Assembly (NCBI GenBank): GCA_038056715.1
Contig: JBBUEZ010000004.1
Span: 1 to 37,575, forward strand
Direction of reading: 5' to 3'
Source: Patescibacteria group bacterium
GTDB taxonomy: Bacteria > Patescibacteriota > Minisyncoccia > Phycocordibacterales > JBBUEZ01
Length of the DNA: 37,575 nt
The position numbers and the translations under genes are program-made. Positions 3,606 through 37,575 of the stretch are shown one piece after another (positions within the stretch are counted from its first letter, which is position 1; every line of letters starts with the position of its first letter). The notes under the pieces were generated by a model that made no database searches, was not told the DNA's origin, and saw nothing but the letters and a program-made list of their open reading frames with translations.

Positions 3606-3606
3606 G

Positions 3607-3790: not shown

Positions 3791-3944
3791 CATGAGGACC
3801 GCGAGTACGCTTATCGGTCCTTACAGGACCAGTACACCTTTCGCATCGTGCTCGTGCTACTCCGCGCGATATGCTCAAGGTCTTCAATTCCTCACGCCGC
3901 GCGCGCAAGCGCGCGGCTACTCGGTCATTTTCGCTTCGCTCAAA

Positions 3945-4016
3945 TGCCCTCATGAGGAATCGAACCTCAATTACAAGCTTCGGAAGCTTGCGTCCTATCC
4001 GTTGAACGATAAGGGC
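3945..4016 (-). tRNA. tRNA-Arg (anticodon CCG)
   Basis: The reverse complement GCCCTTA..TGAGGGC-A has anticodon loop TTCCGAA and T-arm TGAGGTTCGATTCCTCA. Confidence 0.88.
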
Positions 4017-4059
4017 TCTTTGGTGTTGGTGTCCGTTGAACGACGGGGAACTATCAAAA

Positions 4060-4132
4060 TGCGCCCGGCAGGAATCGAACCCACAACCCTCTGCTTCGAA
4101 GGCAGATGCTCTATCCGTTGAGCTACGGGCGC
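4060..4132 (-). tRNA. tRNA-Arg (anticodon UCG)
   Basis: The reverse complement GCGCCCG..CGGGCGC-A has anticodon loop CTTCGAA and T-loop TTCGATT. Confidence 0.88.
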
Positions 4133-4194
4133 AGAATATTATTGCATCATAACGCGGAATTTGGAAATGGGCAAAAATACGATACAATGCCAGC

Positions 4195-21637: not shown

Positions 21638-21756
21638 CTAGAATGGGTTCTTTGCCCCTAAACCGTCTTACGGTCGGGCGAAACCCCTAGAATGGGTTCT
21701 TAGCCCCTAAACCGTCTTACGGTCGGGCGAAACCCCTAGAAGGGGTTTTTAGCCCC
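21638..21756. repeat. 49-bp tandem repeat reiterating the last 7 codons of the M23 peptidase gene
   Basis: The 21-nt blocks start at 21638, 21687 and 21736. On the minus strand they all read GAKNPF*, using different synonymous codons. Confidence 0.85.
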
Positions 21757-22935: not shown

Positions 22936-23115
22936 CAAATCTGCCGTTACCCATTACTCTAGCCCCATTAGGGCTTTAGGTCAACGGGGGATGGGGATAA
23001 CCCCCACATAGTGTTTTTCCCACCCAAAAACAGTTGGAAAATTTCTTTGTGTTATATAACTGGGTACAATATAACATCGTCGCTCCTTGACCGTTCCGTT
23101 ACGGACTAGGTCGGA

Positions 23116-23151
23116 CGGAGTGAGAACGAGAAGAAAAGTGTTCTCACTCCG
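23116..23151. repeat. 12-bp-stem hairpin in the helicase upstream region
   Basis: CGGAGTGAGAAC-gagaagaaaagt-GTTCTCACTCCG shares the GAGAAC unit with 13638-13702. Confidence 0.75.
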
Positions 23152-23179
23152 CTCCTCGCTATATGTTATAGTAATCGCC

Positions 23180-25117
23180 ATGCACTATCTCGCTGACCTA
23201 AATGAAGGGCAAAGAGAGGCGGCGCTTCACACAGGGGGGCCACTTCTCATCATCGCGGGCGCGGGCGCGGGGAAAACAAAAACACTCACCAGCCGGATGT
23301 TTCATTTGATCAAATCGGGCGTGCGTCCGTCTGAAATACTTGCGATCACATTCACCAACAAGGCGGCGAAAGAAATGCGCGACCGCGTCGTGCGCCTTAT
23401 TCGGGAAGATAAAACGCTCAATCTTCCGCTTACGTTTAACGAGTTGCCGTTCGTCTCCACGTTTCATGCGCTCGGAGTGCACGTACTCCGCCGAGAATCG
23501 CGTCACCTTGACCTGCCGAAACATTTTACGATCGCGGATGACGACGATTCGCTCTCTGCGATAAAAGAGGCGGTTCTAGAGGCGGGGTTGAGTCCGAAGC
23601 AGTTTGAACCGCGCCGGATGAAAAACGCTATCTCTCGGCAAAAAGGGGAACTCGTCACTATGCAAAAATATGCCGAAGGCGCGGGCACCGAATACTTCCC
23701 GCGCGTGCTGGTACAGGTATGGGAAAAATACGAGCACATTCTGCATGCGCGCAAATCTCTTGATTTTGACGATCTTATTTTAAAAACCGTTCACCTGTTG
23801 GAACAAAATAGGGATGTGCGCGCGGCATATCGGAGTGCGTGGCGTTTTATTCACATTGACGAGTATCAAGACACGAACACCGCGCAATACCGCCTTTCGC
23901 TTCTCCTTGCCGGGGACGAGAAAAATATTTGCGTCGTGGGCGATATGGACCAGTCTATATACGCATGGAGAGGGGCGGACTTCCGCAACATTATGAACTT
24001 TGAAAGGGATTTCCCCGGCGCAAAGACGGTGCTTTTGGAAGAAAATTATCGTTCCACGAAAAACATTTTGGATGCGGCGAATGCGATCATTCAGAAAAAT
24101 ACGGAGCGAAAGGATAAAAATCTATTTACGCGAAAGACCGGCGGAGAAAAGATCGGACTCTACGGAGCCTACGACGAAGAGGATGAGGCGCGTTTTGTTG
24201 CGGAGAGAGCGCAGAAATTGATCGCGAGGGGCGTAGAACCGCGCGAAATTGCGGTCTTATATCGCGCGAATTTCCAATCGCGCGTGCTTGAAGACGCAAT
24301 GCTCCGCGCGGACATTCCATACCAAGTGCTCGGTGTGAAATTTTTCGCGCGCAGAGAAGTGAAGGATGCGCTCTCTTTCGTGCGCGCCGCACTGAACGCG
24401 GAGAGTTCGGCGGATATTGCGCGCGCGGTAAACGTCCCTCCGCGCGGAATCGGAAAAGTAACACTTGCCAAAATGTTGGCGGGACAAGAGGAGAGTTTGC
24501 CGCCCGCGGTACGCGAGAAAATCAGCAACTTCCGCGCAATCCTCTCCGAAGTGCGCGAATATGCACTCTCACGAAAACCTTCGGAGACAATTGCGTTCGT
24601 AATTAAAAGGAGCGGTATGGAAGCGGTGTACAAAGCGGGAACCGATGAAGATCGCGAACGGCTGGAAAATGCATACGAACTTGCGCACCTCGCGGAAAAA
24701 TATGACGGACTCGCGCCGGAGGAAGGGATTATGAAACTTTTGGAGGACGCCGCGCTTGCAAGCGACCAGGATTCGCTCTCGCACGAAAAACCTGAACATA
24801 AAAATGCGGTGCGCTTGATGACAGTGCACGCATCCAAGGGCCTTGAATTCCCGCATGTGTTCGTAACGGGCCTTGAAGATGGCCTCTTTCCGCATGGGGG
24901 ATTCGCAGATAGAGATTCAGCCGACCGCGCGGAGGAAGAGCGGCGACTTTTTTATGTCGCGGTCACGCGCGCAGAACATAAACTTTTTCTCTCGTTCGCG
25001 TCCATTCGCACTGTTTTTGGCTCGCGCCAAGTAAATATCCCTTCAGAGTTTTTGAGTGATATTCCCGACGAATTGCTTGAAGCGGAGGGAGGAGAACGCA
25101 CCGTTTCTTTTAATTAA
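23180..25117 (+). CDS. pcrA: UvrD/PcrA/Rep-family SF1 DNA helicase
   Basis: Motifs are AGAGAGKTKTL (Walker A), DEYQDTN, VGDxDQSIYxWRGA, the YR(S/A)N type and TVHxSKGLEF. The start is at 23180, with TATAGT 7 nt upstream. Confidence 0.9.
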   Translation: MHYLADLNEGQREAALHTGGPLLIIAGAGAGKTKTLTSRMFHLIKSGVRPSEILAITFTNKAAKEMRDRVVRLIREDKTLNLPLTFNELPFVSTFHALGVHVLRRESRHLDLPKHFTIADDDDSLSAIKEAVLEAGLSPKQFEPRRMKNAISRQKGELVTMQKYAEGAGTEYFPRVLVQVWEKYEHILHARKSLDFDDLILKTVHLLEQNRDVRAAYRSAWRFIHIDEYQDTNTAQYRLSLLLAGDEKNICVVGDMDQSIYAWRGADFRNIMNFERDFPGAKTVLLEENYRSTKNILDAANAIIQKNTERKDKNLFTRKTGGEKIGLYGAYDEEDEARFVAERAQKLIARGVEPREIAVLYRANFQSRVLEDAMLRADIPYQVLGVKFFARREVKDALSFVRAALNAESSADIARAVNVPPRGIGKVTLAKMLAGQEESLPPAVREKISNFRAILSEVREYALSRKPSETIAFVIKRSGMEAVYKAGTDEDRERLENAYELAHLAEKYDGLAPEEGIMKLLEDAALASDQDSLSHEKPEHKNAVRLMTVHASKGLEFPHVFVTGLEDGLFPHGGFADRDSADRAEEERRLFYVAVTRAEHKLFLSFASIRTVFGSRQVNIPSEFLSDIPDELLEAEGGERTVSFN

Positions 25118-25120
25118 CAC

Positions 25121-25141
25121 TTTGGCCAAGGCTTAACCTTG
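25121..25141. repeat. REP-like hairpin element, left of the Y1 transposase gene
   Basis: TTTGGCCAAGGCTTAACCTTG matches 17 of 21 positions of 25841-25861 and overlaps the -35 TTGACT. Confidence 0.6.
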
Positions 25142-25175
25142 ACTAAAATAACAGGGTTTGTGATATAATAAACAT

Positions 25176-25883
25176 ATGACGCGAAAAATATCTTTCTCTG
25201 TTGGAGAATATTATCATCTATATAACCGAGGGGTTGATAAAAGAAATATATTTGCAAATAAAAATGACTACGGCCGTTTTACCGCTCTTTTATATTTATG
25301 CAACTCTTCTAAACCGATTAATATAAGCAAACATTTTGATCGAAAACGTTCCTTTCAAGAACTATTCGTGGTGCCACGCAAAAATACCCTGGTCGAAATC
25401 GTGTCATACTGCCTGATGCCGAACCATTTTCATATTCTCGTGTATGAAAAAAGAGAGAGCGGAATTAGTAGGTTTATGCAAAAATTATCAACCGCATACT
25501 CCATGTATTTCAACGTGAAAAGAGGAAGAACGGGAGGATTGTTCGAAGGAACCTTCAAAGCAAAACACATCGACACAAATCCGTATCTGCTTTATGTGAC
25601 TTCGTATATCCACCTTAACCCAATAAAACTTATAGACACAAAATGGAAAGAAAACGGGATTAGAGATAAAAAAGCGGCAAGATCATATTTGCACCAATAT
25701 CCGTATTCTAGTTTTTTGGATTATGTTGGTAAAAAAAGAAAGGAAGGAAACATTATTGAACCGCGTTTCTTACAAGATACGCGCACGCCCAATTCATTTG
25801 AGGAGTTTGTGGGGGAGTGGTTATCAAATGATGCCTCGGATTTGGCCGAGGTTAAGCCTCGGCTAAATAATAAGCAAACCTAA
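25176..25883 (+). CDS. IS200/RayT-like HUH Y1 tyrosine transposase
   Basis: Motifs are YHLYNRG, the HUH motif CLMPNHFHILV, and YIHLNP with a Tyr near the C-terminal helix. TGaTATAAT lies 6 nt before the ATG. The gene is AT-rich relative to its flanks. Confidence 0.75.
   Translation: MTRKISFSVGEYYHLYNRGVDKRNIFANKNDYGRFTALLYLCNSSKPINISKHFDRKRSFQELFVVPRKNTLVEIVSYCLMPNHFHILVYEKRESGISRFMQKLSTAYSMYFNVKRGRTGGLFEGTFKAKHIDTNPYLLYVTSYIHLNPIKLIDTKWKENGIRDKKAARSYLHQYPYSSFLDYVGKKRKEGNIIEPRFLQDTRTPNSFEEFVGEWLSNDASDLAEVKPRLNNKQT
25841..25863. repeat. REP-like hairpin element at the 3' end of the Y1 transposase gene
   Basis: TTTGGCCGAGGTTAAGCCTCGGC has a 7-bp stem and a 5-nt loop. Confidence 0.6.
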
Positions 25884-25896
25884 CACATCTAACACA

Positions 25897-26691
25897 ATGA
25901 AACTGATTCCGAAAAAATCACTTGGACAGAACTTTTTGCGAGCGCCGGCGATTGCGCGCGTGATTGCGGAAACGGCGTGTCCGCTCGGAAACGAAACTGT
26001 GCTTGAAATCGGACCCGGGGAAGGCGCGCTTACGGATGAACTTTTGAAATGTGCGAAAAAAGTTGTCGCTGTTGAGAAAGACGCGCGGCTTATTGAAATA
26101 CTCCAAAAAAAATACGCGCAGGAAATCAGAAACAAAAAACTTGCGCTCTCTCTGAGCGACATATTGTCCCACTCTCCGGAGAAATTCATCCGCGCAAAAG
26201 AATATGTCGTCGCCGCAAATATTCCGTATTACATAACGGGTGCGATTATTAAGCATCTCCTCTCGGCAAAAAACAAACCGAAACGCGTTGTTTTTCTTGT
26301 TCAAAAAGAGGTTGCTTGGCGTATCGCGGCTCGAAAAGGCAGACCGTTCAACTCCGCTCGTGGTAAAGAAAGCGTTCTCTCTATAAGCGTGAAGGTGTAT
26401 GGCACTCCGCGCATCGTGCGAGTTGTCCCCGCGGGCGCATTTTACCCGCGGCCAAAAGTAGACTCTGCGATTATTGTGATAGAAAACATACAGAATCCTT
26501 TCAGAAAAAAAACCGGCGAAGAAAAATTCTTTAAGATACTCAAGTGTGGTTTCGCGCATAAGCGAAAACTTCTCCGAAGAAATCTCGGTGTGACGGGGGA
26601 GACCCTCGCCCTCTGCGGCATTCAAAAAGATACCCGTCCGGAAACGCTATCGGAAAAACAATGGCTCTGTCTTTCAAAAAAAATCGGATAA
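25897..26691 (+). CDS. rsmA: 16S rRNA (adenine1518/1519-N6) dimethyltransferase
   Basis: Motifs are KSLGQNFL, the SAM motif VLEIGPGEGALT, and NIPYYIT. Confidence 0.9.
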   Translation: MKLIPKKSLGQNFLRAPAIARVIAETACPLGNETVLEIGPGEGALTDELLKCAKKVVAVEKDARLIEILQKKYAQEIRNKKLALSLSDILSHSPEKFIRAKEYVVAANIPYYITGAIIKHLLSAKNKPKRVVFLVQKEVAWRIAARKGRPFNSARGKESVLSISVKVYGTPRIVRVVPAGAFYPRPKVDSAIIVIENIQNPFRKKTGEEKFFKILKCGFAHKRKLLRRNLGVTGETLALCGIQKDTRPETLSEKQWLCLSKKIG

Positions 26692-27155
26692 TCTTCCTTT
26701 TTGTATGCACGATTGCGGTTGCGGCCGGTATACAAGGTTTAACCTTGCATAGAGATTGTGTTGGTAGTCCTTGTGCAAGGTTAAACCTTGCACAGGGAAC
26801 AGATACGGAGATGCGGGTTGGGAGAACAGAGGTTCGGGTGGAAATTGCCGATACAGATGCGGAAAGAATGCGCGGACTTTCAGGGCGGGACGCGCTGGGA
26901 GAGAATGCGGGGATGTTTTTTGTATTTGAGCGCACAGGCTACTACGGATTCTGGATGAAAGACATGCGCTTTCCGATTGACATTGTGTGGATAGGAGAGG
27001 ATATGCGCGTTGCCGGCATTACCGAAAACATCTCGCCGGAGACATTTCCGGAGGTCTTTTATCCTCCCGCGCCCGCACAATTCGTTCTGGAAGTCCCCGC
27101 GGGATTTTCTCGTTCAAAAGACATACGAATCGGCAGTCTGCTAAAGATTCGGTAA
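26661..27155 (+). CDS. DUF192-family protein with N-terminal membrane anchor
   Basis: The DUF192 core is VEIADTDAERMRGLSGR..GMFFVF....GFWMKDMRFPIDIVW. It overlaps the rsmA end by 31 nt. Confidence 0.7.
   Translation: MALSFKKNRIIFLFVCTIAVAAGIQGLTLHRDCVGSPCARLNLAQGTDTEMRVGRTEVRVEIADTDAERMRGLSGRDALGENAGMFFVFERTGYYGFWMKDMRFPIDIVWIGEDMRVAGITENISPETFPEVFYPPAPAQFVLEVPAGFSRSKDIRIGSLLKIR
26733..26794. repeat. Two further REP-like hairpins inside the DUF192 coding region
   Basis: CAAGG-tttaa-CCTTG lies at 26733-26747 and TGTGCAAGG-ttaaa-CCTTGCACA at 26772-26794. They encode QGLTLH and ARLNLAQ. Confidence 0.6.
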
Positions 27156-27211
27156 CGGGCTCCAAAAAACCTTTGTTTACCAACGCAAATCTCCGGAAGG
27201 AGACTTCTTCC

Positions 27212-27610
27212 CTAAATGGAGGGGGGTCCCGGACAGAACGGAGGCGGAGGTCCAATCAATGAGGTACCGACTAGTGCATACGTACCCAGCGCGGGAATGT
27301 TAATAAATCCCCAGTTGCAAACCCCCGGCGGAACCGCTTTCCCGAGAACACATGGTCCGGGGCGGTAAATTTGATAAAACGCAAAAAGTTGCGAAACAAA
27401 AGGTATATACATGAAAAGACCGGGTCTCGGAGGACCAATGAGCGTAAGCACGCCATTTGTACAATACAAAACCATCCATATCTTTCCCCCCACGGGAATA
27501 AAAGGTACCGCCGCGCGCGCGTGAGGCACAGTGCTGAAAAAAAAAGAGACCGCAACAACAATACTAAAAAAAAATCGGAGAAGTTTTCTATTCTTGCGTG
27601 TGTTTTCCAT
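27212..27610 (-). CDS. Small secreted Cys/Pro/Gly-rich protein, unknown family
   Basis: The signal peptide is MENTRKNRKLLRFFFSIVVAVSFFFSTVPHARA. The start lies 1 nt after the stop of the upstream gene. Confidence 0.55.
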   Translation of the reverse strand: MENTRKNRKLLRFFFSIVVAVSFFFSTVPHARAAVPFIPVGGKIWMVLYCTNGVLTLIGPPRPGLFMYIPFVSQLFAFYQIYRPGPCVLGKAVPPGVCNWGFINIPALGTYALVGTSLIGPPPPFCPGPPSI

Positions 27611-27611
27611 A

Positions 27612-28475
27612 TTAAAAATAAAGTGTGAATACCATCTGGCGCCGGTTACTCTCGCCGTACTCGTTTTCCACGTACACAAAGATCGGAAACGACAGCGGGG
27701 CAACGCTTGCTTCCGGAGAATATGCGGGGTTTTCTGAAAATGAAACGTTGATTCCGTATTTTTCAAAAAGAGAAGTAATCGGCGCCGTTGAAGTGCTTGT
27801 CGGATCAAACACCAAAATTCCCCGCGTCTCGTCAGATTTCATCCTAGGAAGTGTAACACGCATTGTTTTCCCATCCAATGAGGGGATGTCGCGGATTGCC
27901 GCGTATCCGACATCCACGACGTTCCCGTTTTTTGAAAATCCCTCTCCTTTAATCACAATTTCAGTTCCGTCGCGCGCTTTTGTCGGAAGAATCGTTGAGA
28001 TTCTTGGCGCCGGCACAGCGGCACCACTTCCGGCGAATACTTCCTTTTGCGTTTCTGTGTCCGGCGAAACCGCTCCCCCTTGCGCCGATATCTTTTCGGA
28101 AACAACCGGCGCATATGCGCCCCTGTCGGTGAATACGCTTTCCAACTCATCGCCATCCGCGATTCCGTCTCCGTCGGTATCTTCGTTTGCCGCATCAAAA
28201 CCAAGAAGGGTTTCTTTCCAGTCCGGAATGCCATCCGCATCCGTGTCTTTTTGTATGGCAAGACTATCGGCAAAGATGCTTTGTTCTTCGGATTCCGGAG
28301 TTTCCGCGGGTGTCTTTACTGCAGCCGCTAAACCAAACGGGTTATTTTTTAGGCTATTATCAGCATTCCCGTTTCCCGTCTTCCGCGCCGTCATCAGCAT
28401 GAATCCGAGAGCGCCAAGAAGCAAAGCAAGAATGGCGCCCGAGAGGGCAATTTTTTTTATTTTTTGTCCGGTCAC
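27612..28475 (-). CDS. Membrane-anchored surface protein with thrombospondin type-3-like Ca-binding repeats and an IPT/TIG-like domain
   Basis: It carries DTDADGIPDW and DTDGDGIADGDE repeats and the beta-sandwich-like ISTILPTKARDGTEIVIKGEGF. GTG 28475 is preferred as the start (TATAAT 9 nt upstream); the ORF extends to 28547. Confidence 0.6.
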   Translation of the reverse strand: MTGQKIKKIALSGAILALLLGALGFMLMTARKTGNGNADNSLKNNPFGLAAAVKTPAETPESEEQSIFADSLAIQKDTDADGIPDWKETLLGFDAANEDTDGDGIADGDELESVFTDRGAYAPVVSEKISAQGGAVSPDTETQKEVFAGSGAAVPAPRISTILPTKARDGTEIVIKGEGFSKNGNVVDVGYAAIRDIPSLDGKTMRVTLPRMKSDETRGILVFDPTSTSTAPITSLFEKYGINVSFSENPAYSPEASVAPLSFPIFVYVENEYGESNRRQMVFTLYF

Positions 28476-28569
28476 GGCATTGTCATTATACAGGAGGAGT
28501 CGCCCTATTATCCACATCTGCCACACCCTTCGCTCTACTCCCCGCAATTTGATATAATTTGTAAGATAG

Positions 28570-29568
28570 ATGCGTCATATTAAACCTTACCTGCCAACCA
28601 ATCAATTCATGCGGAACATCGCTGCTGTTTTTTTTGTTGTATTGATGATAGCCGGCGTCCTCTCCCTCGTACGCCGCACGCCTCCGAAACAACAAACCGC
28701 GAACACCGATACGAACGCGCCTATTCAAAGCGCCGGCGACATGCAAAAAGATTCCGATGGCGACGGCCTGAAAGACTGGGAGGAAAATCTCTGGGGCGCC
28801 AATCCGCAAAATCCCGACACCGATGGGGACGGGACCCCGGACGGGGAAGAAATAACGCAAGAGAGAAATCCTCTTGCCGCGGGGCCGGACGATGCGCTCG
28901 CGTCTTCCACGCCGAACATATTGAAAGGAACGAGCGCGCTTGGAGAATCCTCGGGTGGCACATATACGGACCAATTGACACGGCAATTATTCGGCACATT
29001 CATCGCGGCGAAACAGAGCGGGCAGAGCATAAACCAAACCGAGGAAACACAAAAGATATTGAATGACCTTTTCACCGCATATCAATCCGATCAGAAAGCG
29101 GTGTATACTAAAAGCCAGATTGCGACAACAAGCGACAATTCGGCGGCATCATTAAAAAAATACGGAAACACGGTCGGGGCCGCCATTTCAAAAATTTACG
29201 CGGTCGGCGCGCGTGATCTTGAAATAGCGCAGTCCGCGCTCCAAAGAGAAGATCGGGAAGAAATAAAACAGTTAGGTGAGATCGCGGAGGCATATGCGCA
29301 CGCGGCGAAAGGCCTCGCGTCCATCCCCGTCCCCTCTACTGCCGCTTCGCTTCATCTTCCGATTGTGAACGCGATCGCCGGGTTTTCCAGCGCTTTGCGA
29401 ACCATGCAAAAACTCATTGATGACCCTGCGGCAGGCATTGTCGGCATCGGAGAATATAAAAAAAATCTTTCGTTGCTCTCAAAATCGCTTCTTGACCTGC
29501 GCGCGTTTCTCACTTCTCGCGGCATCATATTTGAAAAAGGCGAGAGCGGCTACACACTGGGTATTTAA
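28570..29568 (+). CDS. Membrane-anchored protein with TSP3-like repeats and a helical C-terminal domain
   Basis: The TM is IAAVFFVVLMIAGVLSLV, followed by DSDGDGLKDWEE and DTDGDGTPDGEE. It is transcribed divergently from its paralog-like neighbour. Confidence 0.62.
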   Translation: MRHIKPYLPTNQFMRNIAAVFFVVLMIAGVLSLVRRTPPKQQTANTDTNAPIQSAGDMQKDSDGDGLKDWEENLWGANPQNPDTDGDGTPDGEEITQERNPLAAGPDDALASSTPNILKGTSALGESSGGTYTDQLTRQLFGTFIAAKQSGQSINQTEETQKILNDLFTAYQSDQKAVYTKSQIATTSDNSAASLKKYGNTVGAAISKIYAVGARDLEIAQSALQREDREEIKQLGEIAEAYAHAAKGLASIPVPSTAASLHLPIVNAIAGFSSALRTMQKLIDDPAAGIVGIGEYKKNLSLLSKSLLDLRAFLTSRGIIFEKGESGYTLGI

Positions 29569-29578
29569 TCCGTACCGT

Positions 29579-31057
29579 ATGAGCAATACCATTATTCAGA
29601 AATTTTTCAGCGCCGTCCTCATGGTCTCTTTTGCAGTCTCTTTTGCCGCGGGCGCGTTATTCCCCCGCGCATCTGCACAGGCCGAGGCAGTTGTAGCGGC
29701 GGCGACTGCGGTGATTTCCGTCCCCACATCCGAAATAGGGATCAATGCGGTAAAGGAAGCGATCTTAGACGGTCTTGCGCGTATTGCGGTAAGAAGGCTT
29801 CTCGCTGAGATTACGAAAAGTATCGTGAATTGGATCAACAGCGGGTTTGAGGGCGACCCGTCGTTTCTCGCCAATCCGCAGGCGTTTTTCTTGAATACGG
29901 CAAATCAAATCACCGGAGAAATTATCGCAAAAGTAAATCCCCAGCTCTGCGACATGTTCCGTCCGCAGATTGTGCTAGTGCTCAAAGGAACCCGCTTCGG
30001 CGAACCGTATCAATGCACCGCACTTAAAGTCTTGGACAATATCCGCTCGTTTGTGAGCGATTTTCAGAACGGCGGATGGACCGGGTGGTTCACCATTCTG
30101 CAAGAAGAAAACAATTTCTACGATACCGCGTATCGCGCAAGCGCGGAACAGGCGCGAAAGATTGGTGCGGATAAAGAAAGAAAGCGCGATGAATTGGCGC
30201 AGGGACAAGGATTTCTCTCCATAAAAAAATGCAGAAAATACGACCCTGACTACGTCGCCGCGCAACAAGCGGCGGCGGACAATGAGGACAACGCGGGCGC
30301 GGCAGCGGCATACGAGCTCAGCTCTTTCAAAAGCGACGGGGGTATTCGCGGGTGCGCGAAGGCGGAAGCCGTTACGCCCGGAAAGTTCATCGCGGAATTG
30401 GGCATAAACGCGAACAATATTCCCGTAAACGACCTTATTGCGGCCGACGAGATAAACGAAGCGCTTGTGGCGATTTTCAATGCGCTTATTAATCAAATGA
30501 TATCCCACGGATTTAGTTCGCTCTCCGGAGGAAATGGCGATTCAGGAAACAGCGGAAGCGATTGGACTTCCGCAGACGACGGCACCGGAACGTTTAAGGA
30601 TAAGGTGGAGAACATGAAGAAAAACAAAACCGAGTATTACAATACGCGCAAAGAATCAATCGTCGTACTCAATGAAACGATGAGCGCGGTGGATGAAACA
30701 TATACCTGCTACAGCAGCGACCCGGAGAAGTACGACCAAGAGATAAAAAACATCAACGATATTAAACTTGCCGCCGACCAGACGAAAAAACAATACGAGC
30801 AGGAGATAGTGTTGTTTGACACATACGCCGGAGAGTTTGCCGCGATGGAGCAAAAAGCGGAGAAAGAGAGCCCTACGGCGCTGGACCTCGCAGAAATTAC
30901 AGACGCAATCGGCAAACTTTCTCTGCTTTTCCCGGTGCTCGGAGACTCGGCGCTCGCCGATGCGGCAAAGAAAGACCTCGCCGACCAGAAAAACACGCTC
31001 GCGGAGGTGCGGGCGAGTCTCGCGCTTTGCCGAGGAATCGCGCCCGCACTGCCGTAA
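29579..31057 (+). CDS. Large secreted protein, unknown family
   Basis: The signal peptide is MSNTIIQKFFSAVLMVSFAVSFAAGALFPRASAQA. The start was trimmed from the ORF-track 29417, which overlaps the previous gene. Confidence 0.62.
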   Translation: MSNTIIQKFFSAVLMVSFAVSFAAGALFPRASAQAEAVVAAATAVISVPTSEIGINAVKEAILDGLARIAVRRLLAEITKSIVNWINSGFEGDPSFLANPQAFFLNTANQITGEIIAKVNPQLCDMFRPQIVLVLKGTRFGEPYQCTALKVLDNIRSFVSDFQNGGWTGWFTILQEENNFYDTAYRASAEQARKIGADKERKRDELAQGQGFLSIKKCRKYDPDYVAAQQAAADNEDNAGAAAAYELSSFKSDGGIRGCAKAEAVTPGKFIAELGINANNIPVNDLIAADEINEALVAIFNALINQMISHGFSSLSGGNGDSGNSGSDWTSADDGTGTFKDKVENMKKNKTEYYNTRKESIVVLNETMSAVDETYTCYSSDPEKYDQEIKNINDIKLAADQTKKQYEQEIVLFDTYAGEFAAMEQKAEKESPTALDLAEITDAIGKLSLLFPVLGDSALADAAKKDLADQKNTLAEVRASLALCRGIAPALP

Positions 31058-31168
31058 TCAGCCAATGTTTGCGATATGCATGAAAACAACAGTTCGCGAA
31101 TTATGCGAATACGGACGAGACCGGATGAGAAATGAAGCGCGATACTATATAATCAAGTGTACGATTCC

Positions 31169-33133
31169 ATGACGCTCTCTTCTACAACACTATTTCTCGC
31201 TTTTTTGAAACAGACTTTGGTTGTTTTCGTTATTTTTGTTGCGGCGCTTGGGCCTTTTTCTGTTTCTTTTTTCGGAGAAAAAAGGTTTGCGGTATCAAAA
31301 ACATATGCCTATGACTGTGATGGATTAGAAGACACAGACACAAGCTTTGCGAAGAGTCTTTGCGAACAACGGCATGTGACGGAAGCTGCTGGCAATAATC
31401 CGGATCCGGTTAGTAATTATACCGTTGCTGGTGTTAAGCAAAAACCTATTGGAGGAGGACCCGATGAAGGAAGCCCTTTTATTTGCGGGTTTTCCAACTT
31501 AGGAGGCTGTGTCGGAAGTGTTATTTACTATGTTTTCTTCAAACCCGCCGAATATTTTATAGGGTTTGCGGGATGGTTTTTTGACATCATGGCGGCATTT
31601 ACATTGAGTCCCAAGGTGATAGACCAGCCGTTCGTGAGAGATACATGGGCGGCGGTGCGCGACATGGCGAACATGCTCTTCATTTTCGCGCTTCTTGCGA
31701 TTTCCATCGCGACCATTCTCCAGGTGGAGCAGTACAATGCGAAAAACATGCTCGCGAAATTGATTATTCTCGCCGTCGTCATCAATTTCAGCTTCTTCAT
31801 CTCGCGCGCCATTATTGACGCCGGAAATATCACCGCATTTTTCTTTTATAAAAATATCGAGGCCGTCGGCACAAATACCAATGTGAAAGGAGTGTCTGCG
31901 GTTGAGATAAAAAGTGTTTTTAAAGCGAAAGACGGGGGAAAAGAAGCATTCGGGTTTGAAGCGCGCGGAATTTCGGGCAAATTGATTAGCGCCGTAAAAC
32001 CGCAGTCCGCATTTTCAGAGAAAATAACAAAAGCGCTGGCGGTTTCCAGTCCGGGGACGCTCATTATATTTTACATAGGGGTTTCTATTTTCTTTTTCGT
32101 TGCGGGATGGGCGTTCTTCAGCATCGGGCTGTCGTTTTTGACGCGCGTTGTCGCATTGTGGATACTTATTATATTCTCTCCGCTTGCGTTTGCGGCAAGC
32201 GTATTGCCGTCCACGAGCAACTATGCCCGCCAGTGGTGGGAAGAAATTTTCAAAAAGTCGTTTTGTGTCGCCATTTTTCTCTTCTTTCTGTTTATTATAA
32301 GCCGATTCGTGGGAAGCGTTTTGATAACGACAACTTTTGCCGACCCGTCAAAAGCGACAAATGTTATCTACTTCCTTATTCTTTCCATGCTCTATTACAG
32401 CATGCTCCTCGTGCTTTTGAAGGTGGCGAAAGACACGACGCTCAAGTGGTGCGATGAAATGGGCGGGCACGCGCTCGGCATCGGGAAGAAAATCGCTGGG
32501 CTTGCCGGCGGAGCGCTTATGCTTGGCGCGGGGGGGCTCGCCACGCGGACATTGGGGGCAAATTGGTTTAAGGGGTTCGTAGAGAAAGAGAAGGGGTCGC
32601 GAATAGGACAATTTGTCCGTAAAAATTTGATACGAAGAGGGGTAGAGGGAGTTTCAAAAGCATCATTCGGCGCAACCGAGCCCTTTGGGAAACGTGTGGA
32701 AGGCGGATGGGCCGGAATTACCGGAAGAAAAGCGAGAACTGAAGCTAATTATGCCGATTGGCTGGCAAGCGGAAAGGGAGGAAAAGACAGATTGAAAAAA
32801 TACATCGCTACAGGCACTGCAAAATACGATGGTGTATTCGGTAAATTGATGACAACGGTAAATCCTTCTGCTGCCGGAGAGCACGCCGGAGTGCTTACAA
32901 GAGCGATAAAAGACCTCAAAAATAAGATGGTTCAACTTGATAAGGACATTAACAGAGCGGCGCAAAGCAACCCCGGCGGAGTCGCAGATCTTGTTAAGAA
33001 CGAAGTCAGCGTAAAAGAACAGTTGGCCGAGTATGAAAATAAGCTGTCGCAATTAGGATTCTCCGTGCCTGAAAAAGAAGTGAAAACCGGCGGCGCGGCG
33101 GGAAGCGGCGGAGCGGGAAGTAAGGGACCATAA
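31169..33133 (+). CDS. Polytopic membrane protein with coiled-coil tail; VirB6/TrbL/ConG-like by topology and position
   Basis: It has at least 7 hydrophobic segments, then a hydrophilic C-terminal region ending GGAAGSGGAGSKGP. The family assignment is an inference only. Confidence 0.55.
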   Translation: MTLSSTTLFLAFLKQTLVVFVIFVAALGPFSVSFFGEKRFAVSKTYAYDCDGLEDTDTSFAKSLCEQRHVTEAAGNNPDPVSNYTVAGVKQKPIGGGPDEGSPFICGFSNLGGCVGSVIYYVFFKPAEYFIGFAGWFFDIMAAFTLSPKVIDQPFVRDTWAAVRDMANMLFIFALLAISIATILQVEQYNAKNMLAKLIILAVVINFSFFISRAIIDAGNITAFFFYKNIEAVGTNTNVKGVSAVEIKSVFKAKDGGKEAFGFEARGISGKLISAVKPQSAFSEKITKALAVSSPGTLIIFYIGVSIFFFVAGWAFFSIGLSFLTRVVALWILIIFSPLAFAASVLPSTSNYARQWWEEIFKKSFCVAIFLFFLFIISRFVGSVLITTTFADPSKATNVIYFLILSMLYYSMLLVLLKVAKDTTLKWCDEMGGHALGIGKKIAGLAGGALMLGAGGLATRTLGANWFKGFVEKEKGSRIGQFVRKNLIRRGVEGVSKASFGATEPFGKRVEGGWAGITGRKARTEANYADWLASGKGGKDRLKKYIATGTAKYDGVFGKLMTTVNPSAAGEHAGVLTRAIKDLKNKMVQLDKDINRAAQSNPGGVADLVKNEVSVKEQLAEYENKLSQLGFSVPEKEVKTGGAAGSGGAGSKGP

Positions 33134-33156
33134 GACCATAATAAAACCATCACAAC

Positions 33157-33828
33157 ATGATTGACCGCCATCTTACGTCCGAGAAACTGGAGGAGCAATT
33201 TCTTTCTCTTCCGAAAGATATTCAAAACGCAATTACATCAAATGCGATTTTAGACGTGGTCGGCGAGATCGGAAAAAATCGAGGGCTGCATATTGATCAG
33301 ACGGGCGTTCTCGCGGAAGAGACGGCGCTTCTTATGCTGGGGGAAACGCGTTTGGACGGTTTCTCCTCGCGGATGGAAGAGTCGCTCGGAGTGCCTTCCA
33401 ATATCGCAAATGCAATTGTCCAAGACCTGAATGATAAAATATTTCTTCCGATTCGCGCGTCTCTCATGACGCTTCATGAAAAGAGAGCGACACCCCAAGC
33501 GCCGGAGGACATGCTTGCGACGAATATGACGCCGTTCTCGGATGATGCAAAGGAGGGGGGGCAAGAAGTAACGGGTAATCAGCAACTGGTAACTGGTGGG
33601 GGAGAAAAAATTCCGAAAAAAGAACCCATTACTGAACAATCAAGTCGCCCCATTCCCCCGTCAGCAAGTTATCCTGCCAAACAGTTGCCAGTCGGCCCTT
33701 CGCTTGTGGAGCAAAAACTCGCGAAGCCGTTTACGGCGCCTGCAAAGGAGGTAAAGAACGGTAACCAAACGGCGGCGCAATCGGCGCCAGCGACAAAAAT
33801 AGATCCATACAGGGAGTTAACTAAATAG
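33157..33828 (+). CDS. Soluble hypothetical protein with a Pro/Gln-rich C-terminal half
   Basis: The ORF is clean and in operon spacing (23 nt after the previous stop). Confidence 0.55.
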   Translation: MIDRHLTSEKLEEQFLSLPKDIQNAITSNAILDVVGEIGKNRGLHIDQTGVLAEETALLMLGETRLDGFSSRMEESLGVPSNIANAIVQDLNDKIFLPIRASLMTLHEKRATPQAPEDMLATNMTPFSDDAKEGGQEVTGNQQLVTGGGEKIPKKEPITEQSSRPIPPSASYPAKQLPVGPSLVEQKLAKPFTAPAKEVKNGNQTAAQSAPATKIDPYRELTK

Positions 33829-33869
33829 TAACTGGTAACTGGCAACCGGTAACTGGGTACTGGTAAAAC
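33828..33869. repeat. Six tandem heptamers (GTAACTG type)
   Basis: GTAACTG GTAACTG GCAACCG GTAACTG GGTACTG GTAAAAC. The inverted counterpart lies at 34249-34290. Confidence 0.85.
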
Positions 33870-34248
33870 ATGATTAAAAACTTTTACGATCTCACTGTAT
33901 GGGAAGAATCACATGATCTAAGTATTCGGATATATGAGGTAACAAAAAAGTTTCCTCCCGAGGAAAAGTTTGGTATCACGGGCCAACTGCGAAGAGCGTT
34001 TTCGTCCGTATCGGCAAACAGTGCGGAAGGTTTCGGCAAATTCCACTTTAAAGACAAGGTTAGATTTTACTACACTGCGCGTGGGTTTATACGAAACACA
34101 GAATTTTCTTCTTCTTTCACGCGGATTGGGTTATCTTAAAGGGGAGTCTACTGAAGAGTTACTCTCACAATTACTCTCACAATATGTTACTTTATGCAGA
34201 AGATTACATGTCTTTATCATGTCAACAAATGATAAACTGAATGAGTAA
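33870..34248 (+). pseudogene. Four-helix-bundle protein (23S rRNA intervening-sequence protein family), frameshifted
   Basis: Frame 1 reads MIKNFYDLTVWEESHDLSIRIYEVTKKFPPEEKFGITGQLRRAFSSVSANSAEGFG..YYTARG. The family continues (LYETQNFLLLSRGLGYL) in a second frame from about 34083. Confidence 0.7.
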
Positions 34249-34290
34249 CCATCTACCAGTTACTAGTCACCAGTTACCAGTTACTAACCT
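34249..34290. repeat. Tandem heptamers (CAGTTAC type), inverted with respect to 33828-33869
   Basis: CAGTTAC TAGTCAC CAGTTAC CAGTTAC. Confidence 0.85.
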
Positions 34291-34296
34291 AGAATC

Positions 34297-34704
34297 ATGC
34301 AATTTGAAGTCCCACAATTCATAGAGATAGAAGACAAAATTTTCGGACCGTTGACGTTCAAGCAGTTCGCGTATCTTGCCGGCGGCGCGGGACTTTCTTT
34401 TATTTTCTACACGCTCATTCCTTTTCCTTTCTCCGTTCTGTTTGTCATCCCGATCGCCGTTCTTTCGCTTGCCCTCGCATTTTACAAAGTGCACGGAAAG
34501 CCGTTCGTGGCTGTACTGGAATCCGCAATCCGTTTTACATTAAGCAATCGCCTGTATGTGTGGAAAAGAAAAGAGGCGTCTTCTGAAAAAAAAGATGCGC
34601 CTCCAGAAAAGGCGGCGGAAAGCGCTCTCTCTGTTCCCCGCCTCTCCGACAGCAAGTTAAAAGACCTCGCGTGGGGTTTGGACGTGCATAAGAATGTGCG
34701 GTAG
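34297..34704 (+). CDS. PrgI-family small membrane protein (VirB3-like T4SS component)
   Basis: It has the family-typical N-terminus VPQFIEIEDKIFGPLTFKQFAYL followed by two TM helices. Confidence 0.72.
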   Translation: MQFEVPQFIEIEDKIFGPLTFKQFAYLAGGAGLSFIFYTLIPFPFSVLFVIPIAVLSLALAFYKVHGKPFVAVLESAIRFTLSNRLYVWKRKEASSEKKDAPPEKAAESALSVPRLSDSKLKDLAWGLDVHKNVR

Positions 34705-34709
34705 AGAAA

Positions 34710-34793
34710 GTTAACGGGTGAATCGGTTAACCGGTTAATAAGTCGGAAAAGGAATATGAAACTAATTAACCGATTCACTGATTAACCAATCTG
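34710..34793. repeat. Inverted arrays of CGGTTAA / TTAACCG units
   Basis: GTGAATCGGTTAA (34718-34730) is the exact reverse complement of TTAACCGATTCAC (34766-34778). Additional GGTTAA copies flank both arms. Confidence 0.8.
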
Positions 34794-34808
34794 TTGTACA
34801 ATGCTTCT

Positions 34809-35441
34809 ATGGTTGCAAGCAAATCATCTCAAGATTTTGTTCCCGTCAAAGAGGTGCGCGATGGAGTTCTTATCTTAAAAGACGGATCTATACGCCGCAT
34901 TCTTATGGCGTCGTCCCTTAATTTCGCGCTCAAATCCGCGCCCGAGCAGGAATCCATCATTTATCAATTCCAAACATTTCTCAATTCCATAGATTTCTCG
35001 GTGCAGATATTCATACAATCGCGAAGGTACGATATCAGACCATACCTCGCAATTCTGGAAGAACGGGAGCGGGAGCAACTAAACGACCTCTTGAAAATAC
35101 AAACCCGCGAGTACATCAATTTCATACAAGAATTCATGGAAATGACGAATATCATGACAAAAAACTTTTTTGTCGTGGTGCCGTATGCCTCGGCGAAATC
35201 TACTCTTCGCGGCGGCGGTTTCCCGTTTTTTTCAAAGAGAAAAATGCCGGCTCGAGAGCGCCTGGAAGATTTTGAGGAAGAAAAAACGCAGTTGGATCAG
35301 CGCGCGTATGTCGTGCAGCAAGGGCTTGCGCGCTGCGGCGTCCGAACAGAGGGGTTGGGGACCGAGGAAGTCATTGAGCTTTTGTATCGCATGTTTAACC
35401 CGGGCGAGCAGGAAAAGCCGCTCGCGCCGAAACAACCATGA
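34809..35441 (+). CDS. VirB4-type N-terminal domain encoded as a separate polypeptide
   Basis: SQDFVPVKEVRDGVLILKDGSIRRILMASSLNF..E..I...F..FLNSIDFSVQIF resembles the N-terminus of VirB4/TrbE/PrgJ. TACAAT lies 6 nt before the ATG. The TGA overlaps the next ATG. Confidence 0.6.
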   Translation: MVASKSSQDFVPVKEVRDGVLILKDGSIRRILMASSLNFALKSAPEQESIIYQFQTFLNSIDFSVQIFIQSRRYDIRPYLAILEEREREQLNDLLKIQTREYINFIQEFMEMTNIMTKNFFVVVPYASAKSTLRGGGFPFFSKRKMPARERLEDFEEEKTQLDQRAYVVQQGLARCGVRTEGLGTEEVIELLYRMFNPGEQEKPLAPKQP

Positions 35442-37270
35442 ACACGCTCATGCACATGTTCGGAAAAAAGAAAGAGGAGCGCGCGGAGGCGATGCCGATA
35501 CTCCCCAAAGAAATATATGAGGCGGCCGCCCTTGAATTGAAAGATATCATCGCTCCGTCTGCGCTTGAAATACGCCCGCAATCAATTCACTTGGGCGATA
35601 AGATTGCGCGCACATTCTTCATCATGTCGTTTCCCCGCTCTCTTTCGGACAATTGGTTTTCCCCCATCATCAACCTTGACCGCGTGTTTGATGTCGCTAT
35701 CTACATTCATCCGATAGATACGGGGAAAATACTCCGCGATTTCCAGAAAAAAGTCGCGGAAGTGCAAAGCCAGATCTCTGCGCGGCAGAAGAAGGGGCTC
35801 GTGCGGGATCCGGTGCTTGACAGCGCATACCAGAACATTGAGGAGTTGCGGGATAAACTCCAGCAAGCGCAGGAGCGGCTTTTTGACGTGGGGATTTATA
35901 TCACGATTTATGCAAACGACGAGACCGAACTCGCCCGCGCGGAATCAGAAATAAAATCATTTCTGGAATCACGGCTCATTTATGTCCGCCCGTCTTTGTT
36001 TCAGCAGGAAGAAGGGTATAAGAGCGTCGTGCCGATGGCAACCGACCTTTTGGGCGTGCACTCAAAAATGAATTCAAGCCCTCTCTCCAGCGTGTTCCCG
36101 TTCGTGTCGTTTGACCTCACCTCGGACAAAGGCATTCTCTACGGTATCAATCGCCACAACTCAAGCTTGATTCTTTTTGACCGATTCAGCATGGAGAACT
36201 ACAATTCCGTGATTTTCGCAAAGTCGGGTTCTGGCAAATCATTTGCGACGAAGCTGGAAATACTACGCTCTCTTATGTTTGACATTGATGTGATTGTCAT
36301 AGACCCCGAACGCGAGTACGAATTCTTGGCGGAAGCAACCGGAGGGAGGTATTTCAACATTTCGCTTACCTCCGACCACCACATCAACCCGTTTGACCTG
36401 CCGGTCCCGCGCGAAGATGAGTCGCCCGCCGATGTCTTGCGTTCAAATATCATTACGCTGGTCGGCCTGTTTCGGCTTATGCTAGGCGGCCTCTCGCCGG
36501 AGGAAGATTCGCTCGTTGACCGCGCCATCACCGAAACATACGCCTTGAAAGACATTGGCGAAGGGTCTGATTTTTCCGCCGCGACTCCGCCCCTTATGTC
36601 CGACTTTGAGCTGGTGCTGCGGAGCATGGAGGGAAGCGATTCGCTCGTTGCGCGTCTTGCAAAATACACGAAAGGAACGTGGACCGGTTTCATCAACCAG
36701 CCGACGAACGTGGACATTAACAAAAAATTCGTCGTGTTCTCCGTGCGCGACATGCAGGACGAATTAAAATCAACGGCAATGTATATCGTGACGCACTTCA
36801 TCTGGAATGCAATCAGAAAAAATATCCGCAAGCGCCTCTTGGTCGTGGATGAGGCGTGGTGGATGATGAAATCCGAGGACACGGCGTCGTTTCTTTTTTC
36901 TTTGGCGAAACGGGGACGAAAATATTATTTGGGCCTCTGCACGGTTACGCAGGATGTCGGCGATTTTCTCAAATCCGATTACGGCGTGCCCATTATCACC
37001 AACTCGTCCATTCAGATTCTCTTGAAGCAGTCGCCGACAATCGTGGATCTCGTTCAGAAGACATTCGCGCTCACGGATGAGGAGCGGTTCTTGCTCCTGG
37101 AATCCGGAGTGGGGGAGGGCATTTTCTTCGCCGGCCAAAAACATGTTTCTATCAAGGTGATGGCTTCATATACGGAACAGCAGATTATTACATCCGATCC
37201 GTCCCAAGTGCTTGCTATCAAGCGCGCGAAAGAGGATTTGCGGAAGAGCGCACTTGCCGGTAATGCATGA
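35438..37270 (+). CDS. VirB4/TrbE/PrgJ-family T4SS ATPase
   Basis: Walker A is AKSGSGKSF, followed by IDPEREY. Walker B is LLVVDEAWWMM, and GRKYYLGLCTVTQ is also present. Confidence 0.85.
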   Translation: MNTLMHMFGKKKEERAEAMPILPKEIYEAAALELKDIIAPSALEIRPQSIHLGDKIARTFFIMSFPRSLSDNWFSPIINLDRVFDVAIYIHPIDTGKILRDFQKKVAEVQSQISARQKKGLVRDPVLDSAYQNIEELRDKLQQAQERLFDVGIYITIYANDETELARAESEIKSFLESRLIYVRPSLFQQEEGYKSVVPMATDLLGVHSKMNSSPLSSVFPFVSFDLTSDKGILYGINRHNSSLILFDRFSMENYNSVIFAKSGSGKSFATKLEILRSLMFDIDVIVIDPEREYEFLAEATGGRYFNISLTSDHHINPFDLPVPREDESPADVLRSNIITLVGLFRLMLGGLSPEEDSLVDRAITETYALKDIGEGSDFSAATPPLMSDFELVLRSMEGSDSLVARLAKYTKGTWTGFINQPTNVDINKKFVVFSVRDMQDELKSTAMYIVTHFIWNAIRKNIRKRLLVVDEAWWMMKSEDTASFLFSLAKRGRKYYLGLCTVTQDVGDFLKSDYGVPIITNSSIQILLKQSPTIVDLVQKTFALTDEERFLLLESGVGEGIFFAGQKHVSIKVMASYTEQQIITSDPSQVLAIKRAKEDLRKSALAGNA

Positions 37271-37298
37271 GGGCTTTGCGTGAGTTATAATACAAACA

Positions 37299-37575
37299 AT
37301 GAAGCATTCTTCGCATGTACCCATCTTTTTAGCCGGAATTTTTTTCTTGGGAAGCGCTCTTATTCCGTCAATTACATCCGCGCAGTGGTTTCCGTATGAG
37401 GGCGGCTATTGCAGATTGACCGAGGACCCTAATGTGAATTTTTGCGTGTTTGACCCGAGTCTCTATGCACAGTTCGGGATTGTGCCCTCGGCAATCGGTG
37501 GCACGCCACCTCCGCAGACAGGCACGCCACCTCCGCAGACAGGCACGCCACCTCCGCAGACAGGCACGCCACCTC
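37299..37575 (+). CDS. Secreted protein with Pro/Thr-rich tandem repeats (partial; runs off the window)
   Basis: The signal peptide is MKHSSHVPIFLAGIFFLGSALIPSITSAQ. TATAAT lies 7 nt before the ATG. Confidence 0.6.
   Translation, partial: MKHSSHVPIFLAGIFFLGSALIPSITSAQWFPYEGGYCRLTEDPNVNFCVFDPSLYAQFGIVPSAIGGTPPPQTGTPPPQTGTPPPQTGTPP
37500..37575 (+). repeat. 21-bp perfect tandem repeat (at least 3.6 copies), encoding GTPPPQT
   Basis: GGCACGCCACCTCCGCAGACA repeats from 37500 to the window end. Confidence 0.9.

Follow-up and report, generated by a model that had tools for sequence, protein, structure and literature searches.

A chromosomal type IV secretion locus of Paceibacteria, probably a contact-dependent conduit to a bacterial host

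In this study, we analysed a type IV secretion system (T4SS) locus at positions 27212–37575 of a 37,575-nucleotide stretch of DNA, hereafter the window, from a Patescibacteria group bacterium (GenBank assembly GCA_038056715.1, contig JBBUEZ010000004.1, positions 1 to 37,575). The Patescibacteria, also called the candidate phyla radiation (CPR), account for a large part of the diversity of bacteria, and those in cultivation live attached to other microbial cells. Our analyses give us high confidence that the locus is a vertically inherited, chromosomal T4SS of the Patescibacteria clade in a member of the Paceibacteria (Parcubacteria), derived from monoderm conjugation machinery of the mating pair formation (MPF) class MPF-FATA and likely working as a contact-dependent conduit to a host. 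Its genes are referred to below as g1 to g6, followed by those for PrgI, a TrsD-like protein and VirB4, and then by d1 to d3, of which only the 5' end of d1 lies inside the window. A first-pass annotation of the window had already described a T4SS-like locus here, made up mostly of unrecognisable proteins, and all the genes it listed were found, either exactly where it had placed them or a few codons off.

The gene models of the 27.2–37.6 kb part of the window were scanned against the Pfam and NCBIfam profiles and were used for profile and sequence searches against the PDB. A scan restricted to one genome per species supplied 80 related loci, and gene order and gene presence were scored in 82 related Paceibacteria loci with profile hidden Markov models built from first-round orthologues. 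Presence counts are given relative to eligible loci, that is, only those long enough to hold the gene in question. The region past the end of the window was read from contigs of near-identical relatives that were reached via g4 and g6. One of these, the ENA contig L087, matches window positions 21654–37575 at 99.5% identity and carries the operon onward through d1 (419 aa), d2 (376 aa) and d3, and a second, L088, adds the genes for Jag and YidC.

The identification as a T4SS is carried by the ATPase gene and the two genes preceding it. The ATPase (35438–37270, plus strand; 610 aa) comprises the central and C-terminal P-loop domains of VirB4 and matched the NCBIfam model conju_CD1110 ('VirB4-like conjugal transfer ATPase') with 366.6 bits, which exceeds its curated threshold of 325, over model positions 183–734 of 752. 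It also matched Pfam P-loop_TraG (E = 3.2e-25), VirB4_plasma (270 bits) and TraC (179 bits), and its best solved relative was the C-terminal domain of VirB4 in PDB entry 4ag5 (E = 1.5e-40). The abutting TrsD-like gene (34809–35441, plus strand; 210–215 aa) is the VirB4 N-domain as a gene of its own, with matches to VirB4_plasma, the model of the VirB4 of a Mycoplasma integrative and conjugative element (ICE) (E = 3.9e-10), to positions 2–119 of conju_CD1110 (E = 1.3e-5) and to TrsD (E = 1.7e-5), and its counterparts in relatives carry the precomputed annotation PF26593 TraC-like. The two open reading frames (ORFs) overlap in an ATGA at 35438–35441. The first-pass annotation had taken them for a single VirB4 in two pieces, and since they cover complementary parts of the CD1110 model, they do together make up one VirB4. 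A separate TrsD-like ORF was recovered next to virB4 in every one of the 78 eligible loci. The PrgI/VirB3-like membrane protein (34297–34704, plus strand), whose proposed identity was likewise upheld, matched Pfam PrgI well above its cut-off (E = 5.2e-13; 49.8 bits versus 27) as well as TcpE (E = 2.2e-4), and its gene lies upstream of virB4 in 71 of 72 eligible loci.

Many database entries for this ATPase family bear the automatic name 'DUF87 domain-containing protein', and the window's protein does match Pfam DUF87, the HerA central domain, with an E-value of 1.4e-6. These facts could be read as signs of a HerA/FtsK-type translocase, active for example in cell division or defence, that merely happens to be encoded beside unrelated membrane proteins. 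We give that reading almost no credence and rejected it on scores and gene context. The DUF87 match amounts to 29 bits against the 366.6, 270 and 179 bits obtained with conju_CD1110, VirB4_plasma and TraC, FtsK is absent from the matches, and the ATPase is accompanied by PrgI/VirB3 and the TrsD-like N-domain, with a T4SS pilin domain encoded in the same operon.

At least 8,000 candidate homologues of the ATPase were found with E ≤ 1e-10. Among the 120 matches listed, identities were 73–84%, all the proteins were about 610 aa long, and the named sources were Patescibacteria, Paceibacterota, Yonathbacteria and Lloydbacteria. The constant length of the ATPase across the listed homologues shows that the separation of the N-domain is a feature of the family and not the product of a frameshift. 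The best plasmid relatives were CD1110-type VirB4 proteins of Firmicutes and Actinobacteria, which are just 28–35% identical to the window's protein. An identity of 74–84% within Patescibacteria versus at most 35% to plasmids argues for long vertical inheritance under strong constraint.

The gene order surrounding VirB4 is conserved as well. The order g3-g4-VirB6-g6-PrgI-TrsD-VirB4-d1-d2-d3 is canonical in 78 of the 82 loci, all on the virB4 strand, and each of the ten operon genes was recovered in at least 87% of eligible loci. The first-pass annotation had grouped its unnamed proteins with VirB4 and PrgI by position, and this grouping held for g3, g4, g6 and d1; it did not hold for the minus-strand pair at 27212–28547, which is confined to the nearest relatives. 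The part of the window upstream of the locus holds genes for a CCA-adding enzyme, PNPase, ComM, a peptidase of the M23/LysM type, PcrA, KsgA and a DUF192 protein, with ksgA (25897–26691) immediately preceding the locus. In relatives with VirB4 identities of 84% and 78%, the succession runs PcrA, KsgA, the locus, VirB4, three genes, Jag, YidC, YidD, RnpA, (L34), DnaA and DnaN, and in the near-identical contig Jag and YidC likewise follow the operon. The locus is therefore a fixed feature of the core genome near the replication origin and not an ICE.

Two genes of the window could nonetheless recall mobile DNA. A XerC/D-like tyrosine recombinase, the sole integrase in the window, is encoded at 12718–13632, and an IS200-like Y1 (RAYT-like) transposase gene lies between pcrA and ksgA at 25176–25883; the latter belongs to the window lineage only and is not found in the other ~80 loci. 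These two genes, together with the fact that the closest VirB4 proteins outside the CPR are CD1110-family ATPases of conjugative plasmids and ICEs of Firmicutes and Actinobacteria, are what favours a decayed or cryptic ICE that has lost its relaxase, coupling protein and integrase or has them beyond the window. Such an origin is very improbable, and we rejected it, because the same genes occupy the same site (ksgA to jag/yidC/dnaA) in the same order in 78 of 82 species-level genomes, VirB4 is 74–84% identical across the group, and in relatives the 10 kb to each side encode neither a relaxase nor a type IV coupling protein (T4CP). In addition, the recombinase is of the XerC/D type and stands 14 kb off, behind the genes for PNPase, ComM, PcrA and others, and relaxases are known from only 103 Patescibacteria genomes, rarely near virB4 (PMC12102498).

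No relaxase was found among the scanned ORFs of the window or, in relatives, among the genes up to 10 kb from virB4, oriT not having been searched for, and no T4CP (VirD4/TcpA) in the window or in the relatives' flanks, the only P-loop proteins of the window being ComM, PcrA and VirB4. Neither the locus proteins nor d1–d3 gave a Pfam or NCBIfam match to a VirB8-like protein, and the structural models of g4 and g6 are not NTF2-like. The first-pass annotation had recognised no relaxase, VirD4-type protein, VirB8-like protein or cell-wall hydrolase, and for the part of the window that holds the locus we came to the same result. A conjugative element flanking the locus was also absent. Housekeeping genes stand on both sides in the window and in relatives, and extension past position 37575 through the relatives brought to light no relaxase, T4CP or integrase.

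These properties are those of a system that has already been published, of which the locus is a fresh Paceibacteria example. In a survey of 2,474 Patescibacteria virB4 loci (Quinonero-Coronel et al. 2025, Microb Genom; PMC12102498), the Patescibacteria VirB4 clade was sister to MPF-FATA, TrsD (VirB4-N-terminal-like) was the commonest associated component, and PrgI/VirB3, VirB6 and VirB2-like pilins were present. VirB8 was rarely detectable in that survey, T4CPs were not adjacent, relaxases were almost absent (found in 103 genomes only and seldom near virB4), and the Paceibacteria locus was placed near dnaA, dnaN, rnpA, ksgA and rpmH. A homologous cluster, SEML1_0006-0019, is indispensable to epibiotic growth in Southlakia epibionticum, and there too pilins were noted while coupling and relaxase proteins were lacking (Wang et al. 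2023, Cell; PMC10633639). A 2025 FEMS review summarises this essentiality and related T4SS work (PMC12857230). The locus shares with the published systems a VirB4 of the same group together with a TrsD-like gene that stands apart, PrgI/VirB3, a putative VirB6, a pilin of the VirB2 kind in a monoderm, the lack of a relaxase or adjacent T4CP, and a chromosomal position near dnaA, dnaN, rnpA, rpmH and ksgA. It differs in that, where tandem small pilins are reported from Saccharimonadia and Microgenomatia (PMC12102498), it has a single gene whose pilin domain is joined to a domain of the hydrolase type. Furthermore, essentiality was shown in Saccharimonadia only. The papers of Wang et al. and Quinonero-Coronel et al. 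do not name the thrombospondin type 3 (TSP3) proteins, the g4 core, the g6 family with its DPYRE ending, d1 or d3.

The fused gene, d2, is the second after virB4 and begins about 1.3 kb past the end of the window (L087:16921-18051, virB4 strand; 376 aa). Its product consists of a signal peptide, a variable N-terminal region, a T4SS_pilin/VirB2-like hairpin and a C-terminal domain. The hairpin of the L087 protein matched T4SS_pilin with 27.4 bits (E = 3.5e-6; cut-off 26.6), a model that 55 of 65 d2 orthologues (L002–L086) matched too, and d2 hairpins also matched the model for Mbov_0395, a 'pilin-like conjugal transfer protein' (E = 6e-5 to 4e-4). The gene was present in 63 of 66 eligible loci. 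Peptidoglycan-active domains were identified C-terminal to the hairpin in about 24 of the 65 orthologues, and these were of several types: NlpC/P60 in seven, VanY/M15_4 in six, YkuD in four, Amidase_5 in three and SLT-type in four; the fused architecture was verified on ten examples. In the window lineage, the C-terminus of d2 had no Pfam or PDB match but contains an invariant H-x7-D...H-x-H and three Cys, a pattern that is reminiscent, at the level of the motif, of the LAS Zn-peptidases. The apparent lack of a hydrolase noted by the first-pass annotation is therefore correct for the locus within the window only, as a pilin domain and a putative hydrolase function are both encoded, in d2, just past its end. 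The fusion of pilin and hydrolase is without mention in PMC12102498.

The genes on either side of d2 encode conserved, beta-rich proteins that are exported or anchored. The window contains the 5' end of d1 (37299–37575, plus strand), encoding a signal peptide followed by four GTPPPQT repeats, and the complete 419-aa protein is encoded at L087:15665-16924, where the four copies are followed by a Gly run. At the DNA level the repeat consists of 3.6 perfect (100%) copies of a 21-nt unit at 37500–37575, and such perfection suggests recent expansion or variability in copy number. The 92 residues of d1 that fall inside the window by themselves had no match to the d1 family, and orthology was set through the full-length L087 protein, which is 44% identical to the family's copy in the related locus L002. 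Present in 70 of 71 (d1) and 61 of 61 (d3) eligible loci, the two families gave only sub-threshold hints when their profiles were compared with the PDB, an Ig-like one for d1 (Hoc, E = 0.02) and a TolB one for d3 (0.12).

Within the window, the gene for the extended VirB6-like protein, g5 (start at 31157 or 31169, end at 33133, plus strand; 658 aa), was recovered in 54 of 55 eligible loci. The first-pass annotation had named it a polytopic VirB6/TrbL-like membrane protein; its polytopic nature stands, with seven hydrophobic segments preceding a hydrophilic C-terminal tail of ~235 aa, and its kinship to VirB6 is weakly supported. The match to the NCBIfam CD3337/EF1877 mobilome membrane protein fell below the cut-off (E = 0.0037), Pfam TrbL/VirB6 was matched by three of 38 syntenic orthologues (best E = 6e-5), and the profile of the family had no match in the PDB.

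Directly upstream of g5 lies g4 (29579–31057, plus strand), which encodes an exported all-alpha protein of 492 aa and was present in 45 of 49 eligible loci; a word-indexed search returned 28 homologues. Its core of ~250 aa, with the motifs WINSGF-G-P-F, GGW, GFLS-C and TPG, was seen in all 47 orthologues tested and has no match in Pfam, NCBIfam or the PDB. An AlphaFold2 (AF2) model based on 29 sequences was all-alpha and poor, with a mean predicted local distance difference test score (pLDDT) of 58.6 and confidence only in the C-terminal helices 340–490, and a Foldseek search of it against the PDB returned generic helical bundles only (best E = 0.17), so that no fold was assigned. Orthologues of g4 range in length from ~375 to 1184 aa, some having discoidin-like/galactose-binding or bacterial Ig-like domains added to the core (for example in L060, L078 and L059). 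F5/8 type C lectin domains were found in five and Ig-like domains in three of 44 orthologues. These additions on the longer orthologues suggest a role in surface recognition and point to g4 as a putative modular host-recognition component. A 410-aa variant in L088 and L089 coincides with 100-base breaks in the alignment to the window, and we regarded it as an artefact of assembly or masking. Homology of g4 to DUF4141 (VirB5/TraI-position), a family that adjoins traJ/VirB6 in Bacteroides conjugative transposons, was considered but found no support for the core: one orthologue matched at 1.3e-5, and a scan of the core of 47 orthologues gave no match.

Between the genes for VirB6 and PrgI, the syntenic Paceibacteria loci encode g6 (33157–33828, plus strand), a cytoplasmic protein of 223 aa that was present in 65 of 68 eligible loci. 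It is composed of an N-terminal six-helix domain of ~105 aa, modelled by AF2 with a pLDDT of 84–97 for residues 10–100, a Pro-rich disordered linker and a C-terminal DPYRE. The latter was invariant in the alignment of orthologues, whereas the linker was variable. In six-frame translations of the loci, DPYRE occurred about once per locus, and 60 of the 63 occurrences lay no more than 8 aa from the stop of the g6 orthologue. Foldseek found no fold match for the g6 model in the PDB (best E = 1.4), and structure prediction assigned a fold to neither g4 nor g6, the two unnamed proteins for which models were made. An exhaustive profile search nevertheless showed the g6 family to be large, comprising 8,802 cluster representatives (50% identity) at E ≤ 1e-3, many with two or three N-domains in tandem. 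Of the best 141 new matches, 113 end in DPYRE, and most of those inspected among the other 28 end in DPY[HKL]E or DPYR[ML].

The 5' part of the locus holds the first conserved gene of the operon as well as genes that are not shared by the group. The former, g3 (28570–29568, plus strand), encodes a membrane-anchored TSP3-repeat protein (transmembrane segment 16–34; Pfam TSP3_bac, E = 1.9e-7, 31.3 bits versus a cut-off of 25) and was present in 40 of the 46 loci with a full upstream flank, in 30 of which it adjoins the 5' side of g4. Divergent from the main operon is g2 (27612–28547, minus strand), whose membrane-anchored product (transmembrane segment 33–51) combines TSP3 repeats with an IPT/TIG domain. 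Pfam TIG was matched above its cut-off over residues 181–254 (E = 1.3e-4; 22.3 bits versus 20.9), and the matches to TSP3_bac and to CglD (E = 8.6e-7) were weak. The two divergently transcribed TSP3 proteins, one with an IPT/TIG-like fold, of the first-pass annotation were thus both recovered. Next to g2, g1 (27212–27610, minus strand) encodes a small secreted Cys/Pro-rich protein of ~132 aa counted from its ATG, with four Cys, 19 Pro and a single N-terminal hydrophobic segment, for which no Pfam or NCBIfam family was found. In a tblastn survey of 85 related loci, g1 was detected in two only, and minus-strand homologues of g2 also in only two; the g1/g2 pair is common to the window and the near-identical contigs. 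Accordingly, g2 is lineage-specific and g1 a lineage-specific accessory gene whose membership of the machine is uncertain. The Cys/Pro-rich, 492-aa, Pro/Gln-rich (223-aa) and GTPPPQT-repeat proteins all exist as the first-pass annotation had described them, and none belongs to a Pfam or NCBIfam family.

The operon also contains one gene that does not belong to the machine. A frameshifted 23S-rRNA-IVP/four-helix-bundle gene, which has been inserted between g6 and prgI (33870–34248, plus strand), matches Pfam 23S_rRNA_IVP with an E-value of 2.3e-21 over model positions 2–68 of 106 only, its C-terminal part lying in another frame (33970–34248), and an identical 89-aa gene call was made in four independent assemblies. 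In the related locus L002, two intact IVP copies flank prgI, and small genes of this kind thus seem to hop into the operon. The same locus, which comes from an 84%-identical relative, has an inserted ParD/RelE toxin-antitoxin pair between g4 and the VirB6-like gene (L002:4024-4504); these small genes were considered as pilins and rejected on that identification, and their insertion indicates that the operon tolerates small selfish elements. Elsewhere in the window, five tRNA genes (Gly-TCC, Pro-TGG, Gly-GCC, Arg-CCG and Arg-TCG) lie on the minus strand at 138–4133, at the window's start. A protein with two LysM domains and a Peptidase_M23 domain is encoded 4.3 kb upstream of the locus (21736–22938, minus strand) and could serve the T4SS or simply cell division. 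VirB1-like matches with M23/LysM domains have been noted in Patescibacteria (PMC12102498), and the VirB1 analogues of Gram-positive systems are membrane-anchored multi-domain hydrolases (PMC12857230).

Comparison with systems outside the Patescibacteria shows the extent to which the locus resembles conjugation machines of Gram-positive bacteria. Like the MPF-FATA systems (Prg/Pcf of pCF10, the CD1110-type conjugative transposon of C. difficile, Trs of pGO1), it has a VirB4 that is closest to CD1110, a VirB3 of the PrgI family and, among its d2 orthologues, a membrane-anchored peptidoglycan hydrolase of multiple types (compare PrgK/TraG), and it is without outer-membrane core components; pGO1 Trs, in addition, has in TrsD a stand-alone VirB4-N-like protein. 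In contrast to MPF-FATA, the locus has no relaxase, T4CP, recognisable VirB8-like PrgL/TcpC or PrgB-type adhesin, and the VirB4 identity is 28–35%. Unlike Gram-positive systems in general, it has a VirB2-like pilin domain and is fixed in the core genome rather than mobile. The Mycoplasma ICE (Mbov_0397 VirB4) is similar in that its models were matched by the VirB4 ORF, the N-domain ORF and d2, with scores that do not reach the respective equivalog cut-offs of 590 and 40 bits, but it represents mobile ICEs of wall-less cells without a hydrolase fusion. Helicobacter ComB and archaeal Ced, lastly, are also powered by a VirB4-family ATPase without a relaxase and have been proposed to move macromolecules inward; the locus lacks ComB- or Ced-specific components, the sole link being a partial P-loop match to CedB/CedD, and membership of either system was rejected on gene context and scores.

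We consider a contact-dependent conduit to a host bacterium the most likely role of the locus, judging from the composition of the operon and from its published relatives. In such a machine, PrgI and VirB6 would form the membrane translocon, on which a VirB4 hexamer would dock to power it. The pilin hairpin and the peptidoglycan-active domain of d2 would provide a short extracellular structure and local cutting of the cell wall, and the Ca-binding TSP3/TIG proteins, along with g4, may decorate the outside and contact the host in a Ca-dependent manner. A possible adaptor on the cytoplasmic side is g6, which has a flexible linker and ends in DPYRE. The machine could export proteins or import macromolecules of the host, and the conduit may be needed for the epibiotic lifestyle, as proposed for Saccharibacteria. 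Relaxase-piloted or conjugative export of DNA is unlikely given that there is neither a relaxase nor a T4CP. The first-pass annotation had suggested uptake, delivery or host attachment, and our results support these interpretations. The same proposals had been made in PMC10633639, PMC12102498 and PMC12857230, however, and as both the system and its suggested functions are in the literature, the high novelty implied by that annotation is not justified.

Import deserves separate consideration, since PMC12102498 gives preference to the idea that DNA or other macromolecules are brought in from hosts. A DNA-uptake machine of the ComB or Ced kind, feeding a cell that is unable to make nucleotides, would be compatible with a T4SS free of relaxase and T4CP. 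The ATPase also matched CedB (E = 9.1e-11; 41 bits versus a cut-off of 700) and CedD (22.7 bits versus 600), and the competence-associated, Mg-chelatase-like ATPase ComM/YifB is encoded ~6 kb upstream of the locus (19914–21437). Both Ced matches, however, are partial, far below threshold and limited to the shared P-loop region, and the Pfam and NCBIfam scans recognised no DNA-binding or nuclease component in the operon. Furthermore, competence in S. epibionticum requires ComEC and type IV pili, and deletion of comEC ends transformation while leaving viability unaffected, whereas the T4SS is essential (PMC10633639, PMC12857230). The essential role is therefore not DNA uptake of the transformation type. 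DNA import is still a live explanation, but because ComEC-dependent competence can be separated from T4SS essentiality in the one species tested, we regard it as unlikely and favour it less than a contact-dependent conduit.

Several points weigh against the conduit as we have described it. A VirB8-like component was not found, the VirB6 assignment of g5 draws on sub-threshold matches, and the hydrolase nature of the d2 C-terminus in the window lineage comes from a conserved motif only. The function as a whole is taken from homology and from experiments in another class, the Saccharimonadia, and what we propose for g3, g4, g6, d1 and d3 is guesswork based on their topology, their position and the accessory domains, neither AF2 nor Foldseek having supplied a fold for g4 or g6. 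Lastly, VirD4 homologues exist in many Patescibacteria, far from virB4 (PMC12102498); a T4CP could thus lie elsewhere in the genome, which leaves some room for DNA transfer.

A more specific proposal, which we advance tentatively and consider doubtful as a whole, is that the Paceibacteria T4SS is a feeding or injection device that breaches the wall of the host. The hairpin of d2 would tether an interchangeable cutter (NlpC/P60, VanY, YkuD, SLT or the new LAS-like domain), perhaps matched to the wall of the host, and g4, outside the cell, would carry interchangeable lectin or Ig modules with which to recognise the host. The g6 family would dock to VirB4/TrsD via DPYRE and thereby replace the coupling protein.

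In one tested species, the conjugation-free T4SS belongs to the small number of machines on which the epibiotic lifestyle is known to depend, and the window confirms, with an example from the Paceibacteria, that its operon is a fixed feature of the core genome beside the replication origin. The pilin-hydrolase fusion, the DPYRE family and the lectin-bearing g4 may go beyond published accounts, and they offer testable handles on how these bacteria contact and open the envelope of their hosts and on what replaces the coupling protein.

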